A DNA stretch of 55,284 nt from a virus (lineage: Duplodnaviria > Heunggongvirae > Uroviricota > Caudoviricetes), in IMG/VR virus record IMGVR_UViG_2648501186_000003, positions 1 through 55,284 of that record; one strand, written 5' to 3'. Numbering within the stretch: the stretch's first letter is position 1; every line of letters starts with the position of its first letter. A program made the position numbers and the translations under genes. The notes below the pieces were generated by a model. It did no database searches. It was not told the DNA's origin and saw only the letters and a list, made by a program, of their open reading frames with translations. Positions 937 to 51,744 of this stretch are shown piece after piece.

Positions 937-970
937 GAAATCCCGCAGATTGGCGGGATTTCTTGTTTAT
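937..970. terminator. Rho-independent terminator hairpin between convergent genes
   Basis: GC stem (aaatcccgc...gcgggattt) followed by a T-rich run, directly after the stop at 933-935. Confidence 0.55.
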
Positions 971-2271
971 GCCAGGCGGGCTATGCGTATTTTACAATCA
1001 TCTAGGTGGATGCGTAGTGCTTCTAAACATGGAGTAAAGTTAGCTGAGAATTTGTCGGACTCACAGGCCAATGCATAAAATTTTTCAGCTAATTCAAGAG
1101 ATTCATCCCATATTTTTCGACTTACAAAGTCTGGTAGTGCTGTTTTTCTAAGCTCATTAGACATTGCTCCCCCAGAGCGTGGGGCAAAACCCATAGGTAA
1201 CATGTCATAGGCTGGAGCAATATGATATGGGCGTCCGTGGCTACTAATAAACGATAGGTTGCCATTATGCATATCGGTATTGCCTATTAGCACACCAAAA
1301 GACCATAGCCTTGTTGCTATAATAATCGCATCAGGATGGACGCACTTATTTTTTACCAACTCTTTAACCAGCAAGGGCCATGTTGCTCTTGCATTCCCAA
1401 CAAATTCTGCATCAAGTGCACGAAGTGAGAATACACCTACCCGACCGAGTTGACCAACACGATCAAATCGGGGAATTTCCAAGAATCTCTGACCGTTATA
1501 ATCAAAAACTTCTGTTTCTACCCCCAGAACTTTTAATGCGAGATGTTCAGCAAACAAGAGATCTCTCCAACGCTCACTTATAGGGGTGTCGTTAGGTGCA
1601 GAGAATTTCACTAATACATGTCCACGCTCTGTGAAAGTACAAAATTTGGGTTGTTCACCTCCAGCAGATGAACCTGGCACATCACCTTCACCAGCGGCTA
1701 AAGCTAATACAGGATATTCAATTTCACGATTAACAGGAACAGGAGGCTGCATCTCTAAAAAATGCGTGCGCGCTTGCTCTCCAATTAACAAATTACCAAC
1801 AACATCATGCCCATGCTTAAGTAAGGCTTTGATCACATCAGTATCTGACCATTGCTCTGGATTTGAGGGAAGGTTAAGTTCAAGAGCATATGCTGATGCA
1901 TATGCTCTTCCAAGGAAGCCTTGTGGACGCATATCAAATAACCACCAAGGTAACCCATCGCTATGCCTGTTATTTTTCCCATCCTCAACCATAACATAGC
2001 CTTCTGGCCTCACCGGAATGAGAGTACCAAGAACGCAAATACACCCCTCTTCAGTTATACGATAAATGGGGACTGATTCGAATCCTCTAAAAGAGTCTCG
2101 TAAAGCATATTGAATAGATCTTCCATTTCCGATCCTAACGATTTCATCACCAAGTTCTCTTAATGCTCTAGATATCGTTGGTTGGCTAACACTGAGTTTT
2201 TCAACCAATTGTCTTGGTGTCATAGGCCCTTGATTGAGCAAGTTACGGATTGTTGTTGCATGTGTAGCCAT
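967..2271 (-). CDS. HipA-family Ser/Thr kinase with fused N-terminal HTH (YjjJ/HipH-like)
   Basis: N-terminal HTH (PRQLVEKLSVSQPTISRALREL) and C-terminal HipA-type catalytic loop (LIGNTDMHNGNLSF). Start taken at the ATG at 2271; the track TTG start at 2331 would add 20 aa. Confidence 0.65.
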   Translation of the reverse strand: MATHATTIRNLLNQGPMTPRQLVEKLSVSQPTISRALRELGDEIVRIGNGRSIQYALRDSFRGFESVPIYRITEEGCICVLGTLIPVRPEGYVMVEDGKNNRHSDGLPWWLFDMRPQGFLGRAYASAYALELNLPSNPEQWSDTDVIKALLKHGHDVVGNLLIGEQARTHFLEMQPPVPVNREIEYPVLALAAGEGDVPGSSAGGEQPKFCTFTERGHVLVKFSAPNDTPISERWRDLLFAEHLALKVLGVETEVFDYNGQRFLEIPRFDRVGQLGRVGVFSLRALDAEFVGNARATWPLLVKELVKNKCVHPDAIIIATRLWSFGVLIGNTDMHNGNLSFISSHGRPYHIAPAYDMLPMGFAPRSGGAMSNELRKTALPDFVSRKIWDESLELAEKFYALACESDKFSANFTPCLEALRIHLDDCKIRIARLA

Positions 2272-2288
2272 AGTTTTAATTACTGTTG

Positions 2289-2321
2289 TGAATAGATTAA
2301 TGAATAGATTTATGAATGCAT
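2289..2321. repeat. Direct repeats TGAATAGATT x2 plus a partial third copy, just upstream of the kinase ATG
   Basis: Seen directly: tgaatagatta / tgaatagattt / tgaatgcat. Confidence 0.5.
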
Positions 2322-2443
2322 ACCATAGCAAGCAAAACGGGAGGTGTCACTAATTTAGATAAGTTAAAAAGACTTCTTTAAGAGATAATGACTAGGCGCT
2401 TTAACTGCTAGCTAACATAATAATTGGTCATTTAACGTGGAGT

Positions 2444-2468: not shown

Positions 2469-3263
2469 TTAGTCACTTTCTGTTTCTTCTGGAATGTTTT
2501 CTTGCGGTTCTGCCAATGCAGCACGACATAGGTTCCTGGCATTGGCTATAGCCACACTTTTGACTTCATCCGTCATCGTGCAGGTAATGTACTGATCGAG
2601 TTCTTCAGCTCGGATGATGCTTTTGCCAATCAGAAACTGTATTTGCCAGTGCAGATCGGCATCCATAATCAGAATTTCTGCCGGGCCTTCAGGGCCAGCC
2701 GGGAAGGAAACATAAGACTGTTTGCCCAAGCCGATAACTCGACAACTTGTTTCAAGAATTGCGCGCTTGAGGTCTGACTTTGTAACGGAAACAGGTTGGT
2801 TTTCACCAGTGATTACGCCGTTGATATGGAAGTGAAAGGGCATGTAGCTTGAAATTCGCTCTACTTTCCATACGCCAGCAAGCGATCCTTCATGCAGCAC
2901 AATGGGGGTAACCGCGAGTTTCATCTCACCATATAACTGCTGGCAGATAGCTGGATTGCTGAATACATCCAAAGGTTCACACTCAAACAGCGGCGCAATC
3001 TGCATGAGGTCCATCATGGTCATACCAGAAGTACGAGCAGTAATGAATTTGCGCATGCCAGTATCCATTGTGCGCCAGATAGCCACACCATGTTTTTTGC
3101 TCACTTCTTCAGTAAAGCCCAGGTGGCACATGATGGTTTTTTCGATAGCCAGATCAGAGATAGAAACCTTTTCGCCTGGCACTCCATCATTATTGATGGT
3201 CACTTCGACACTCTGGCCATTACGTAGGCGGTATTGAATGGTTTTAGTATTTTGTGCTGTCAT
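2469..3263 (-). CDS. Hypothetical protein (264 aa)
   Basis: Long ORF; start chosen at the internal ATG at 3263, which has an AGGA Shine-Dalgarno sequence (track start at 3383). No family motif recognised. Confidence 0.5.
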   Translation of the reverse strand: MTAQNTKTIQYRLRNGQSVEVTINNDGVPGEKVSISDLAIEKTIMCHLGFTEEVSKKHGVAIWRTMDTGMRKFITARTSGMTMMDLMQIAPLFECEPLDVFSNPAICQQLYGEMKLAVTPIVLHEGSLAGVWKVERISSYMPFHFHINGVITGENQPVSVTKSDLKRAILETSCRVIGLGKQSYVSFPAGPEGPAEILIMDADLHWQIQFLIGKSIIRAEELDQYITCTMTDEVKSVAIANARNLCRAALAEPQENIPEETESD

Positions 3264-3460
3264 AGTCTTTCCTCTGCTTAAAACCTGGTGTATTGCGCCT
3301 TCAGGTGGGTCAGGAATGTTTTCCCACCAGCGAAAGCAATATCTCGGGGTGTTCTTTTCGTGAAAAGCGCGTGCCATTGCCAACTTTGGCGTTTTTTAGC
3401 GAGTTCGTGCTTTTGTTGGCGTCTGGACCACCGCTTTTCTTTCAATCGTTTTTTACTCAT

Positions 3461-3968: not shown

Positions 3969-3985
3969 AAATTAATTAGAGCAAT
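3969..3985 (-). promoter_or_regulatory. C1-operator-like site (16/17 to ATTGCTCTAATAAATTT)
   Basis: aaattaattagagcaat in the divergent ssb/lyz intergenic region; the consensus is from memory of P1 C1 operators. Confidence 0.5.
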
Positions 3986-4118
3986 AATGTATATCTTTGA
4001 AACGTAGCTAACAAGTGATTTGCATTATCCTGTGCCTTCTAAAGGGATCGAGTCAGTCGGTATTGGCTGTGAATGGGTGTTTGTCCTGGAGCGTAAAAAA
4101 TTCGCTTATGAGGTCTTT

Positions 4119-4676
4119 ATGAAGGGAAAAACAGCCGCAGGAGGCGGTGCAATTTGCGCTATCGCGGTGATGATTACCATCGTGATGGGTAATGGCAATG
4201 TGCGAACCAACCAGGCGGGGCTTGAGCTTATCGGAAACGCTGAAGGTTGCCGACGTGACCCATACATGTGCCCGGCGGGTGTATGGACTGACGGGATTGG
4301 TAATACACACGGGGTAACGCCAGGCGTGCGAAAAACCGACCAGCAAATCGCCGCTGATTGGGAAAAGAATATCCTGATCGCTGAACGCTGTATTAACCAG
4401 CACTTCCGGGGCAAAGACATGCCCGATAATTCCTTCAGTGCAATGACAAGCGCGGCATTCAATATGGGATGCAATAACTTACGGACCTACTACAGCAAAG
4501 CGCGAGGCATGCGAGTCGAAACGTCCATCCACAAGTGGGCGCAGAAAGGGGAATGGGTGAATATGTGTAACCATCTCCCTGATTTTGTGAACAGTAACGG
4601 CGTGCCCCTGCGAGGTTTAAAGATTCGCCGTGAAAAAGAACACCAACTTTGCCTGACGGGACTGGTCAATGAATAA
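4119..4676 (+). CDS. lyz: SAR-type endolysin (T4-lysozyme/GH24 family)
   Basis: N-terminal Gly/Ala-rich signal-anchor (AAGGGAICAIAVMITIVMG) followed by a lysozyme catalytic region (ELIGNAEGCRRDPYMCPAGVWTDGIGNTHGV). Start set at the ATG at 4119, giving 185 aa. Confidence 0.8.
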   Translation: MKGKTAAGGGAICAIAVMITIVMGNGNVRTNQAGLELIGNAEGCRRDPYMCPAGVWTDGIGNTHGVTPGVRKTDQQIAADWEKNILIAERCINQHFRGKDMPDNSFSAMTSAAFNMGCNNLRTYYSKARGMRVETSIHKWAQKGEWVNMCNHLPDFVNSNGVPLRGLKIRREKEHQLCLTGLVNE

Positions 4677-4920
4677 ACTCCGGCAGCTCCGCAGACTTTC
4701 GACAATGAAGTTATCGCTGGCAGCGATAGTTTTCGACTCGATTTTCATGGCGGTATATGTGCTTAATGAAACGTGGCCACTGGAACCGCTATTGTATGCT
4801 GGGCTTCGGCTGTGCCTGACATTTTTGAGCATGGCCGCGAGATTGATGCAGCAGAAAGAAACCGCTTCAGATTGTCCACGCCGCGCGGTGCGCAAATATA
4901 TGGCACGCAGACGAAGGTGA
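4669..4920 (+). CDS. Small membrane protein coupled to lyz (possible lysis accessory)
   Basis: ATG overlaps the lyz stop; one hydrophobic helix and a basic C-terminus. Confidence 0.4.
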   Translation: MNKLRQLRRLSTMKLSLAAIVFDSIFMAVYVLNETWPLEPLLYAGLRLCLTFLSMAARLMQQKETASDCPRRAVRKYMARRRR

Positions 4921-4936
4921 TAATAGTTAACGAGAA

Positions 4937-4962
4937 CCCCGGCAGCCGCCGGGGTTATTTTT
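4937..4962 (+). terminator. Rho-independent terminator
   Basis: ccccggc-agcc-gccgggg followed by ttattttt. Confidence 0.6.
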
Positions 4963-4967
4963 GGTGG

Positions 4968-7698
<2,731 letters not shown>

Positions 7699-17554: not shown

Positions 17555-17571
17555 ATTGCTCTAATGAATTT
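17555..17571 (+). promoter_or_regulatory. C1-operator-like site (16/17)
   Basis: attgctctaatgaattt; a weaker second site lies at about 17476-17493. Confidence 0.5.
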
Positions 17572-19192: not shown

Positions 19193-19413
19193 AATGATGT
19201 CACGGAGTCTATAATGGCAATGTGAATGTCTTCGTAGTTGACTAAAGCCACAACTCAATTATAACAATTAATTATAGCAATGGTGGCTATTTTATTTATC
19301 GCGAATCACATTTTTTCTCTTCAGTACCTGTGTGCTATACTCCTTCTTGATTGATTGGATGCGGAATACAAACCCGCTCTTTTGTGCAGCCTGGCTCCTT
19401 GCCAGGCTTTTTT

Positions 19414-21385: not shown

Positions 21386-21402
21386 ATTGCTCTAATAAAT
21401 TA
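21386..21402 (+). promoter_or_regulatory. C1-operator-like site (16/17), upstream of coi-c1
   Basis: attgctctaataaatta. Confidence 0.55.
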
Positions 21403-26005: not shown

Positions 26006-27198
26006 TAATCATCATCCCCGTATAGCTTGCGGGTAACTTCTTCGTCTTCCTCCTCGTCTTCGTCCAGGTCTTGTTCCAGCCATGGGTCGTTTGATACACC
26101 TTCAGTATCAACATCTCCATAACCGCCTGTATCAACGATATCGGCGATTTCTTCCCTACGCTGCTCAATCCACAATGCGGCATCGGCGCGGCGGTTGGCG
26201 GCCCGTTCTCGCGCAACTTTGTCCAGATCTTCAAGAGAAGGGCCACCGACGGCTGTTTGCCTTTCCTCATCATCGGTATTGGTCTTAGGAGCACGCAGAT
26301 CGGCTTTGATTTGCTCCAGCATCAGGGGCGGCACTTTTCCGCCATGCGCCTCGATGAATTCAGCTGCTTCCAGCACTGACCAGTTATTTTCACGCTTTCG
26401 TTCGTATGCCAGCTTAACAATGCCAGCTTGCCCCATAGATAAAGCGTGCTTTTCCGCCTCCCGGCTTTCTTTTCGATAGTTATTCCGGATGCTGTAAATG
26501 GTGTTGATCAGGCTGCTTATCTGCGCGGAACAGCTGTTTAGCATGCTCGCGATACGATATTCAGGCGGAGTCCCTTCATCATCGTCTTTTTGCTGATCGC
26601 GCATTTCCTGCACCAGACGAATACACGTATCCCTGGCGTTCTCCAGCATAAGGAGATGAGAAAGAGACTTTTCCAGAAGAGTGGTTTCCAGAACATCGGC
26701 CCCGGACCGACGCAACATAGCGCGAGCGGCCTTCCGCGCTTCAACGTTATCTATCAGGTAATCGCCAGCTTCGAATTCAAAGCGTTCACCATCATCATCC
26801 AGGGTGTCGCGTTCCAGGCGATCACGTAAGGTCCGGTGGGCGCGGGTGATCACGTCATGATCATCAGAACGATCATTTATGCGCTTATTTTGGCGCTTCG
26901 CATTCTCGACTGCGGCACTGACAACGGCATTAACTCTCTGTTTTTCCGCTATTTCAGCCGCAATATGATCACCTGCATGTTGATCATTAGAGTGATCAAT
27001 GATCATGCTTTTTAGTGGCTTCCTGACTGGCTTATTTGGCTTGCGGCTGTCCGCAGTCCTGGTGTCTTCTTTGAAGGCACGGAGATAACGACGTGCGGTA
27101 TTAGGGTTAAGATTAAACTCGGCGGCATACTGTGCGATGGTGTAACCACCATCTCGCGCCAGGCGAGCAAAATTCTTCTTGTGATCGTCCCAGGTCAC
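26005..27198 (-). CDS. pacA: Terminase small (pac-site recognition) subunit PacA
   Basis: 397 aa; N-terminal HTH-like region and acidic C-terminus; directly upstream of pacB. Confidence 0.85.
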
Positions 27199-29857: not shown

Positions 29858-31416
29858 ATGAAAATGACAAGTATTCAACAACGTGCAGAGCTTCATCGTC
29901 AAATCTGGCAAATTGCTAACGATGTCAGAGGTTCTGTCGATGGATGGGATTTTAAGCAATACGTTCTGGGCGCACTTTTCTACCGTTTTATCAGCGAAAA
30001 TTTTTCCAGTTATATGGAAAATGGTGATGACAGCATCTGTTATGCGGCACTTGATGACGGCATTATTACTGATGACATTAAAGACGATGCCATCAGAACC
30101 AAAGGCTACTTCATCTACCCCAGTCAGCTTTTCTGCAACGTAGCGGCGAAAGCAAATACCAATGACAGACTGAATGCAGATTTAAATAGTATCTTCGTTG
30201 CTATCGAAAGCTCTGCTTACGGTTACCCTTCAGAAGCTGACATCAAAGGTTTGTTTGCTGATTTCGATACAACCAGTAACCGCCTGGGGAATACCGTTAA
30301 GGATAAAAATGCCCGCCTGGCTGCGGTTCTGAAAGGGGTTGAAGGGTTAAAGCTTGGCGACTTTAACGAACATCAGATTGACCTGTTCGGCGATGCCTAT
30401 GAGTTCCTGATTTCTAACTATGCCGCGAATGCCGGTAAGTCCGGCGGCGAGTTCTTTACACCGCAGCACGTCTCTAAGCTGATTGCACAACTGGCTATGC
30501 ACGGGCAGACCCACGTTAACAAAATCTACGACCCGGCAGCAGGTTCCGGTTCTCTGTTATTGCAGGCTAAAAAGCAGTTTGATGACCACATCATCGAAGA
30601 AGGTTTTTTTGGTCAGGAGATCAACCATACGACCTATAACCTGGCGCGTATGAACATGTTTTTGCACAACATCAACTACGACAAGTTTGATATCAAGCTG
30701 GGCAATACGCTGACTGAACCGCACTTCAGAGATGAAAAACCGTTTGATGCCATCGTTTCTAACCCGCCGTATTCGGTGAAATGGATTGGCAGCGATGACC
30801 CGACGCTGATTAACGATGAGCGTTTTGCCCCGGCTGGCGTTCTGGCCCCCAAATCCAAAGCTGACTTTGCGTTTGTATTACATGCGCTGAACTATCTTTC
30901 GGCCAAAGGTCGTGCTGCGATTGTCTGCTTCCCGGGTATTTTTTACCGTGGCGGCGCAGAGCAGAAAATCCGTCAGTATCTGGTCGATAATAACTATGTC
31001 GAAACCGTAATTTCACTGGCTCCGAACCTGTTCTTTGGCACCACCATTGCCGTAAACATTCTGGTTCTGTCCAAACATAAAACGGATACCAACGTTCAGT
31101 TTATTGATGCCAGCGAACTGTTCAAAAAAGAGACCAACAACAATATCCTGACCGATGCCCATATCGAACAAATTATGCAGGTATTCGCCAGCAAGGAAGA
31201 TGTTGCTCATCTGGCGAAATCTGTCACGTTTGAGACCGTTGTAGCGAATGACTATAACCTGTCAGTGAGCAGCTATGTGGAAGCGAAAGATAACCGCGAA
31301 ATTATCGATATTGCTGAGCTGAATGCTGAGCTGAAAACCACGGTCAGCAAAATCGACCAGTTGCGCAAAGATATTGATGCGATTGTGGCTGAAATTGAAG
31401 GCTGCGAGGTGCAGAA

Positions 31417-31420: not shown

Positions 31421-32610
<1,190 letters not shown>

Positions 32611-36098: not shown

Positions 36099-36115
36099 AG
36101 ATTTATTAGAGCAAT
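36099..36115 (-). promoter_or_regulatory. C1-operator-like site (16/17)
   Basis: agatttattagagcaat. Confidence 0.5.
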
Positions 36116-51727: not shown

Positions 51728-51744
51728 AAATATATTAGAGCAAT
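51728..51744 (-). promoter_or_regulatory. C1-operator-like site (16/17), overlapping a second divergent 14/17 site at 51716-51732
   Basis: aaatatattagagcaat, at the 3' end of dmt. Confidence 0.45.

Follow-up and report, generated by a model that had tools for sequence, protein, structure and literature searches.

The kinase YjjJ of Escherichia coli K-12 was renamed HipH by Gerdes et al. (2021), who placed it in clade X of the Hip kinases, described two conserved serines near its Gly-rich loop, proposed that its helix-turn-helix (HTH) domain 'may function to bind DNA' and stated that control of the kinase 'remains unknown' (PMC8262856). Gratani et al. reported kinase activity, toxicity and rescue by HipB for the K-12 protein (PMC9948734). 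A 2024 study in eLife described HipH as a DNase, found that the HTH is needed for its toxicity and that the protein localises to the nucleoid, and reported that cyclic di-GMP (c-di-GMP) binds HipH, serves as an 'antitoxin' and, via the promoter, raises hipH transcription (PMC11452175). Reg-Seq assigned two repressor sites and no activator to the K-12 yjjJ promoter (PMC7567609). Here we analyse a hipH gene in the IMG/VR virus record IMGVR_UViG_2648501186_000003 (positions 1 to 55,284, hereafter the window), whose start codon is preceded by a short array of direct repeats. These repeats probably form an autoregulatory operator array for the HTH fused to the kinase, within a self-contained cargo cassette of a phage-plasmid. 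The gene already carries the name yjjJ in public records, so the new content lies in the cis-regulatory architecture and not in the protein; no published description of the repeat array, of its unit ATCTATTCA or of a P1-borne yjjJ was found in the searchable full texts, whose coverage is incomplete.

The open reading frame (ORF) on the minus strand spans 967 to 2331, and translation is placed at an internal ATG. We refer to the repeat unit, consensus (A)TCTATTCA, as the HipH box. The elements of the gene and its regulatory region are as follows.

967 to 2271, minus strand: hipH (yjjJ) coding sequence, 434 amino acids from ATG 2271, by ORF call and by the start given by the Prokaryotic Genome Annotation Pipeline (PGAP) in the identical plasmid CP122667.1
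2272 to 2331, minus strand: non-coding leader and promoter region, read as MLWYAFINLFINLFTTVIKT by the mechanical ORF call
2322 to 2350, minus strand: promoter-like GTGACA (2350-2345), 17-nt spacer and TG-extended TATGGT (2327-2322), sigma-70-like, predicted by consensus scan
2313 to 2321, minus strand: HipH box 1, ATGCATTCA, with core ATTCA intact and 5' half diverged, in 12-nt register with boxes 2 and 3
2301 to 2309, minus strand: HipH box 2, exact ATCTATTCA
2289 to 2297, minus strand: HipH box 3, exact ATCTATTCA
2276 to 2284, minus strand: degenerate box 4, AGTAATTAA, 13 nt after box 3 and ending 4 nt before the ATG
2111 to 2119, minus strand: intragenic HipH box, exact ATCTATTCA, in codons R51-S52-I53-Q54 of the predicted wing

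Tandem Repeats Finder (TRF) reports the repeat at 2289-2317 with period 12, 2.4 copies, 94% matches and a score of 51. The first-pass annotation, made from the letters of the window, had described three direct repeats at 2289-2321, lying 18-50 nt upstream of ATG 2271. Their position and two exact copies hold up: TGAATAGATT occurs on the plus strand at 2289-2298 and 2301-2310, reading AATCTATTCA on the gene strand. The third unit is a half copy only, TGAAT at 2313-2317 followed by GCAT. Beyond that earlier description, the locus holds a degenerate fourth unit, an exact intragenic box and a promoter-like site directly upstream of the repeats, such that four units (the first and fourth degenerate) fill the interval from the -10 element to the ATG and one more box lies within the gene. 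The position of box 4 is occupied by a fourth ATTCA in the closest relatives (Pantoea, Erwinia, Enterobacter), and the same ATTAA variant is found in one Proteus locus. Exact copies of ATCTATTCA number three in the entire window, all of them at hipH; a window-wide scan allowing up to one mismatch returned 15 matches against 13.9 expected. With exact boxes confined to hipH, there is no sign of further targets on this plasmid segment.

We compared the locus with 80 orthologous loci from Enterobacterales and many Betaproteobacteria (48-71% identity), giving 82 loci with the window and K-12 (35%). At least two ATTCA cores fall within the 60 nt before the start in 81 of the 82, most often three (42 loci) or four (22 loci), and in those 81 genes of Gamma- and Betaproteobacteria, K-12 included, two to five (A)TCTATTCA boxes stand between a -10-like hexamer and the ATG. 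Successive boxes are spaced by exactly 12 nt in 147 of 170 cases, and the density of CTATTCA in these 60 nt exceeds that in the other 1.01 Mb of locus sequence 405-fold, both strands counted. In 56 of the 82 loci exactly 5 nt separate the end of the last ATTCA from the start codon, and these 56, with their last core at -10 to -6 and anchored on the ATG, define a standard layout with the consensus TGAC(-66)...TAnAAT(-44..-39) ATCTATTCA .. TATCTATTCA .. ATCTATTCA nnnnn ATG. Information content falls to about zero just outside this block of -10 element and boxes, and the TGAC...TAnAAT occupies the same place as the promoter-like site of the window. Read on its gene strand, the window follows the family plan: TATGGT, atgcATTCA, taaatctATTCA, ttaatctATTCA, caacagtaATTAA, aact, ATG. 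K-12 hipH carries three exact ATCTATTCA units with a 12-nt period directly before its ATG, despite a protein only 35% identical and no alignable DNA. A promoter proposed for K-12 by Shimada et al., TTTTCA-18-TCTATT, places its -10 element inside box 1 (PMC3946193).

A second kind of site accompanies the array, and its location differs between clades. In the window clade it is the intragenic box, 165-178 bp downstream (at +157), and sense-strand TATTCA peaks only at -60 to -1 and at +140 to +160. In the 79 genes compared from this clade, ATT encodes the Ile of the box in 70 of 70 cases, where codon usage gene by gene predicts 27.5 (z 10.9), and TCT encodes the Ser in 45 of 64, where 9.3 are predicted (z 12.8). 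These z-scores are inflated in absolute terms by the phylogenetic relatedness of the orthologues; independent of that relatedness are the positional specificity and the column ranking, in which the two largest synonymous-codon excesses of the gene fall on S52 and I53. The intragenic box is, on this codon evidence, maintained by synonymous-codon selection. The K-12 clade (K-12, Salmonella, Citrobacter, Kosakonia, Cedecea, Erwinia and Pantoea), with a wing reading A(T/N)R(Y) or ATQY, is without an intragenic box. In all seven species a distal TATCTATTCA precedes the first proximal box by 64-66 bp, although the intervening sequence is not conserved. This distal box directly follows the terminator of the upstream gene in K-12 (deoD) and in several relatives, and in Salmonella a TTGACA-17-TTAAAT promoter lies between it and the array. 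A constant distance to a box on the upstream side of the promoter speaks for a site that is read as DNA and is constrained by geometry, for instance through bridging or looping.

Box variants also track changes in the HTH. A recognition helix SQxTxSR with wings such as RSIQY goes with boxes of the form A-T-C-T-ATTCA. In seven loci of Comamonadaceae/Burkholderiales, where the wing reads K-K/R-[GS]-[ST]-R-Y and the helix is often SQPTxTR, the boxes read TTAT(A/G)ATTCA, and the frequency of C at box position -2 is 0%, compared with 72% for the boxes of the main group. Distant HipH-like genes on IMG/VR predicted viral contigs (37-39% identity, helix T[RN]xTL[SA]R) show ATTCG instead of ATTCA: three of the six contigs have ATTCG cores at -33 and -21, 12 nt apart, and the other three have a single ATTCG beside a degenerate unit. 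Because each case is a single clade, this apparent covariation is suggestive and does not amount to statistical proof.

Together, these results favour an arrangement in which HipH monomers would bind the array head-to-tail through their winged HTH (wHTH), one per 12-bp unit; ATTCA cores would be contacted by the recognition helix and ATCT flanks by the wing. Binding of the boxes by HipH itself, and repression through it, we infer from comparative evidence, which lends the first-pass proposal of an operator for the fused HTH strong support: family-wide conservation, the distal box of the K-12 clade, the codon-kept intragenic box and covariation with the HTH. Bound HipH would cover the transcription start, predicted to lie near 2315 within box 1, and the leader of about 30-44 nt, bridge to the auxiliary box and repress its own promoter, and the leader, which is free of a Shine-Dalgarno sequence, would further limit translation. 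The outcome would be a growth-inhibiting kinase whose level stays very low with neither HipB nor any other separate antitoxin. Autorepression combined with such a leader could make a kinase of this kind viable as a single-gene unit and mobile as a cassette. If c-di-GMP weakened DNA binding by HipH, both of the c-di-GMP effects reported in eLife might follow from one event.

Two alternatives would deprive the repeats of any regulatory meaning. One is that they arose by chance or by slippage and have no function, as might be imagined for 2.4 copies in AT-rich intergenic DNA. Exact 10-mer repeats at an offset of 10-15 nt number five in the window, where first-order Markov simulations of the whole stretch give an expectation of 0.30, and conservation across the family in exact 12-nt register already refutes such an origin, to which we assign next to no probability. 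The other was offered by the first-pass annotation itself, namely that translation begins at TTG 2331, which would turn the repeats into codons for an N-terminal FINLFINLF peptide. The frame is indeed open from 2331, and PHROG 30447, a family of unknown function, matches window HipH from profile position 15 onward, so that 14 of its positions precede the first residue encoded from ATG 2271. Yet the N-termini of the orthologues line up at ATG 2271, an in-frame stop occurs within the 60 nt upstream in 51 of 82 orthologues, PGAP uses the ATG, the same repeats precede K-12 hipH even though the two proteins share just 35% identity, and the promoter-like -10 element would fall inside the extension. 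ATG 2271 is thus, by alignment, the true start, and with the start placed there the FINLFINLF peptide is an artefact of ORF extension. We regard initiation at TTG 2331 as very improbable and drop that part of the first-pass annotation; the extra positions of PHROG 30447 point to member proteins called with longer N-termini than the conserved start.

Two further alternatives accept the boxes as functional and remove HipH as their DNA-binding reader, and several points count against an autoregulatory operator. MarR/ArsR-like wHTH domains usually bind palindromes as dimers and not 12-bp direct repeats; the covariation cases amount to about two independent events; and the sign of the regulation is read from operator position only. 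ChIP-exo (chromatin immunoprecipitation with exonuclease treatment) of myc-tagged YjjJ in K-12 returned no binding sites at all (PMC8464067), Reg-Seq assigned one of the K-12 yjjJ repressor sites to MarA, from growth-condition and bioinformatic evidence (PMC7567609), and Shimada et al. listed H-NS at the deoD-yjjJ spacer (PMC3946193). These observations are what one would look for if the boxes were a real conserved cis-element read by another host factor, such as MarA or H-NS, and not by HipH. We consider that improbable, because the array accompanies hipH in both Gamma- and Betaproteobacteria, through unrelated chromosomal contexts and into a phage-plasmid slot, because its variants change together with the helix and wing of HipH, and because the only exact copies in the window are those at hipH. 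The fixed position of the last box, 5 nt before the start in the 56 loci noted above, could also point to a role in translation, with the repeats acting mainly in mRNA: AUUCA units in an AU-rich leader would control initiation or be bound as RNA by HipH or another factor. Consistent with this, a Shine-Dalgarno core at -20 to -4 is found in none of the 56 standard-layout loci, boxes 2-4 would be transcribed given the predicted -10 element, and the intragenic box is in the mRNA as well. The distal box of the K-12 clade, however, lies upstream of the promoter with its spacing kept at 65±1 bp, as expected of a constraint on DNA geometry; folding of the leader RNA gives no structure (minimum free energy -1.5 kcal/mol, z 0.81); and the fused domain is of a DNA-binding wHTH type in both Pfam and AlphaFold (AF2) assignments. 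The distal-box geometry and the unstructured leader thus support action at the DNA level, and we likewise give a mainly mRNA-borne role little credence, even if a contribution of the boxes to translation could coexist with operator function. An operator array for the fused HTH remains the reading that we hold to be probable.

The protein behind this array has a conserved layout, with the following parts.

2098 to 2262, minus strand: N-terminal wHTH (residues 4-58), with recognition helix SQPTISRAL and wing hairpin GNGRSIQY
1642 to 1674, minus strand: Gly-rich loop GSSAGGEQPKF (residues 200-210) with two conserved serines, invariant in both clade alignments
1156 to 1671, minus strand: HipA_C kinase core (residues 201-372), Pfam PF07804, E 6.6e-16
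1258 to 1290, minus strand: catalytic loop LIGNTDMHNGN (residues 328-338; D333, N338), aligning to the HipT catalytic motif
1192 to 1209, minus strand: Mg-binding motif YDMLPM (residues 355-360), aligning to HipT YDLL

The first-pass annotation had recognised a one-chain HipA-like kinase from its HTH and LIGNTDMHNGN, and profile and structure searches agree. NCBIfam NF007297, the equivalog 'HipA family toxin YjjJ', matches end to end (residues 4-434 on profile positions 3-446 of 446) with 531 bits over a cut-off of 401, Pfam finds HipA_C at the E-value given above, and the MarR/ArsR-type models HTH_5/MarR cover residues 5-42. The AF2 model (pLDDT, the predicted local distance difference test, 88.5; pTM, the predicted template modelling score, 0.86) has helices at 4-12, 19-26 and 30-43 and strands at 44-47 and 54-58, that is, a three-helix wHTH with a hairpin wing at 44-58 and pLDDT of about 90, followed by a HipA-like body. 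Foldseek returned HipA of Shewanella and E. coli as the best PDB matches (4pu4, 3hzi, 3dnt; probability 1.0, template modelling score about 0.55). Between two divergent HipH clades, GSSAGGEQPKF, GNTDMHNGN and YDMLPM are invariant, including N331, D333, H335 and N338 of the catalytic loop and Y355, D356, L358, P359 and M360 of the Mg motif, as are S29, Q30, S34 and R35 of the HTH. By these sequence and model criteria the gene product is a single-polypeptide wHTH plus HipA-type Ser/Thr kinase of the HipH/YjjJ type, with kinase activity predicted. A toxin or abortive-infection role, raised in the first-pass annotation, is a general possibility for such a protein; a scan of window HipH against PADLOC-DB v2 gave no significant defence-system match, the best (E about 1e-3) covering the HTH or the catalytic loop only.

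Identical and near-identical plasmids carry the gene under the PGAP name yjjJ with the ATG start. The nearest chromosomal relatives, about 70% identical, belong to Pantoea, Serratia, Gibbsiella, Enterobacter and Dickeya; chromosomal relatives are solitary and lie in unrelated neighbourhoods, such as a cus operon, a type I restriction-modification system and an invasin/AraC region. A nucleotide search of 5426 complete E. coli genomes found the gene in 26, almost always on plasmids and with one chromosomal copy, and in PLSDB it is present in 29 of 484 matching plasmids. The same search of 5426 genomes gave no nucleotide-level match between the window gene and E. coli chromosomal hipH. Recent capture of the host hipH was considered and rejected, since the chromosomal gene is too diverged at the nucleotide level.

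The surrounding DNA identifies the carrier. The flanking DNA shares 92-98% identity with P1, SJ46 and 813R1 and has the gene order hxr, isaA, ssb, lyz, pro, prt, and a window-wide scan found 15 C1-operator-like sites with up to three mismatches to the P1 consensus, against 0.29 expected (for example 3969-3985, 17555-17571, 21386-21402, 36099-36115 and 51728-51744). The window is, judging by this synteny and these sites, a P1-like phage-plasmid (Punavirus); the first-pass annotation had already spoken of a phage-plasmid. Within it, hipH occupies a defined slot.

About 970 to 2445: cargo cassette comprising hipH, its promoter and its boxes, placed in the P1-backbone terminator between hxr and isaA, by BLAST against the SJ46 empty site, P1 and 813R1
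938 to 961: terminator-like hairpin AAATCCCGCAGATTGGCGGGATTT, left copy, between the convergent hxr and hipH
2445 to 2462: terminator-like hairpin CCCCGCCAACTGACGGGG, right copy, just downstream of the isaA stop

Both hxr and isaA belong to the P1 backbone and occur with or without hipH. The slot between them is empty in SJ46, holds isaB and IS1 in P1, a gene for a 356-residue hypothetical protein in 813R1 and an ISSod13 family transposase in RCS47; in P7, nmpC lies between the hxr homologue and ssb, and no isaA is annotated. The single hairpin at the empty hxr/isaA site of SJ46 matches both cassette ends in diverged form, which suggests insertion of the cassette, or recombination, within the hairpin. 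The cassette at 970-2445 holds hipH only, and a small-ORF scan of 2272-2468 found no antitoxin-type ORF of at least 20 residues. An Rfam scan of the cassette gave no known RNA family, the closest being a sub-threshold BSnc120 match (26 bits against a gathering score of 114) on the terminator hairpin. Hxr, IsaA and the 813R1 slot cargo returned no Pfam domains, leaving no hidden HipB-like partner among them. The HipB-type motif TATCC-N8-GGATA has two one-mismatch matches in the window against 1.33 expected, both far from the gene, and the window-wide scan places no C1 operator inside the cassette, so that hipH is probably not under direct C1 control. With no other ORF, RNA family, HipB-type operator or C1 operator in the cassette, and with relatives in unrelated contexts, the hipH locus is, by all sequence criteria applied, a self-contained monocistronic cargo cassette in the variable hxr/isaA slot.

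Further observations concern the carrier at large. CP122667.1, an identical 66-kb plasmid from a pig enterotoxigenic E. coli, has the PLSDB type IncHI1B. Within 3969-5928 of that plasmid, a stretch of about 1.4 kb that precedes hxr is without a protein-coding feature in PLSDB's gene table, which is incomplete, and further upstream stand antirepressor/icd genes and not the P1 order ending in ddrB; this gene order suggests a rearranged or truncated P1 backbone. For isaA (window 2469-3383), the maximal ORF runs 304 residues from a TTG, and PGAP gives 264 residues (795 nt) in the identical plasmid. TRF also reports tandem repeats at 31312-31335, 31927-31966, 26042-26065 (12-nt period) and 19257-19281 (13-nt period); those elsewhere in the window include CTTACCGCTGAG in 3.3 copies at 100% identity, and they may be coding repeats or iteron-like sites.

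Collectively, the repeats flagged in one phage-plasmid appear as a family-wide signature, with a phased array, an auxiliary site and variants that covary with the HTH, and they offer a concrete candidate operator for a Hip kinase without an antitoxin gene. Such an array would account in a simple way for the carriage of a toxic kinase in a one-gene cassette, on phage-plasmids as elsewhere. An E. coli host of the plasmid would hold two HipH proteins sharing the same box and the helix pattern S-Q-x-T-x-S-R, and mutual promoter regulation is possible. As plasmid and chromosomal HipH use the same box, we would predict cross-talk between them, and a P1-like plasmid would plug into the host HipH circuit. 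A bolder and distinctly less likely extension is a portable self-control switch: DNA would serve as the antitoxin-like partner, the kinase would form a head-to-tail polymer on the array and bridge to the auxiliary box (written into wing codons in the window clade, in the K-12 clade placed 65 bp upstream), its release would follow c-di-GMP binding, autophosphorylation or a similar signal, and the plasmid could reprogramme the host HipH circuit. If true, this would explain both the reported induction of hipH by c-di-GMP and its 'antitoxin' effect. For the phage-plasmid, candidate roles of HipH are control of host dormancy or physiology, exclusion of other phages and interference with the host HipH.

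Among described systems, the P1 hxr-isaA/ssb cargo slot, which holds isaB and IS1 in P1 and nmpC in P7, has the same backbone position, with hipH as the cargo here. With HipBST the locus shares its best PDB sequence matches, to HipT(Lp) and other short HipA_C kinases over the catalytic and Mg motifs, and the serines beside the Gly-rich loop; unlike HipBST, it has no HipS or HipB gene and carries an N-terminal wHTH and a HipA-like N-subdomain in the same chain. The HipBA modules of E. coli and Shewanella have the same HipA kinase fold and the same probable logic, in which a toxic kinase is limited by HTH autorepression at operators overlapping the promoter. HipB has an Xre-type HTH, whereas that of the window kinase is MarR/ArsR-like, winged and fused to it, with no separate HipB or co-transcribed upstream hipB, and the putative operators are direct repeats of 12-bp period instead of TATCC-N8-GGATA palindromes.

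In their geometry the sites recall lac O1/O2 and gal OE/OI, where a repressor uses a main promoter operator and an auxiliary operator that may be intragenic. hipH likewise pairs a main site with a distant auxiliary site, intragenic at +157 in the window clade and 65±1 bp upstream in the K-12 clade, and by analogy this suggests looping or cooperative bridging. The hipH sites differ in being asymmetric direct repeats, the presumed regulator is the regulated toxin-like enzyme itself, and looping at hipH is a proposal drawn from this geometry. K-12 HipH (YjjJ, b4385) shares with window HipH the wHTH of about 60 residues, the linker domain, the HipA-type core with its Gly-rich, catalytic and Mg motifs, the monocistronic organisation without hipB, the S-Q-x-T-x-S-R helix (SQATFSR in K-12, SQPTISR in the window) and ATCTATTCA boxes of 12-bp period before the ATG. 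The two differ in sequence, with 35% amino-acid identity from end to end and no detectable nucleotide similarity, and in setting, chromosomal between deoD and lplA in K-12 and on a P1-like plasmid here. They also differ in the placement of their sites: the K-12 clade has three proximal boxes and a distal box 65 bp upstream with no intragenic one, whereas the window clade joins three or four proximal boxes to an intragenic box.

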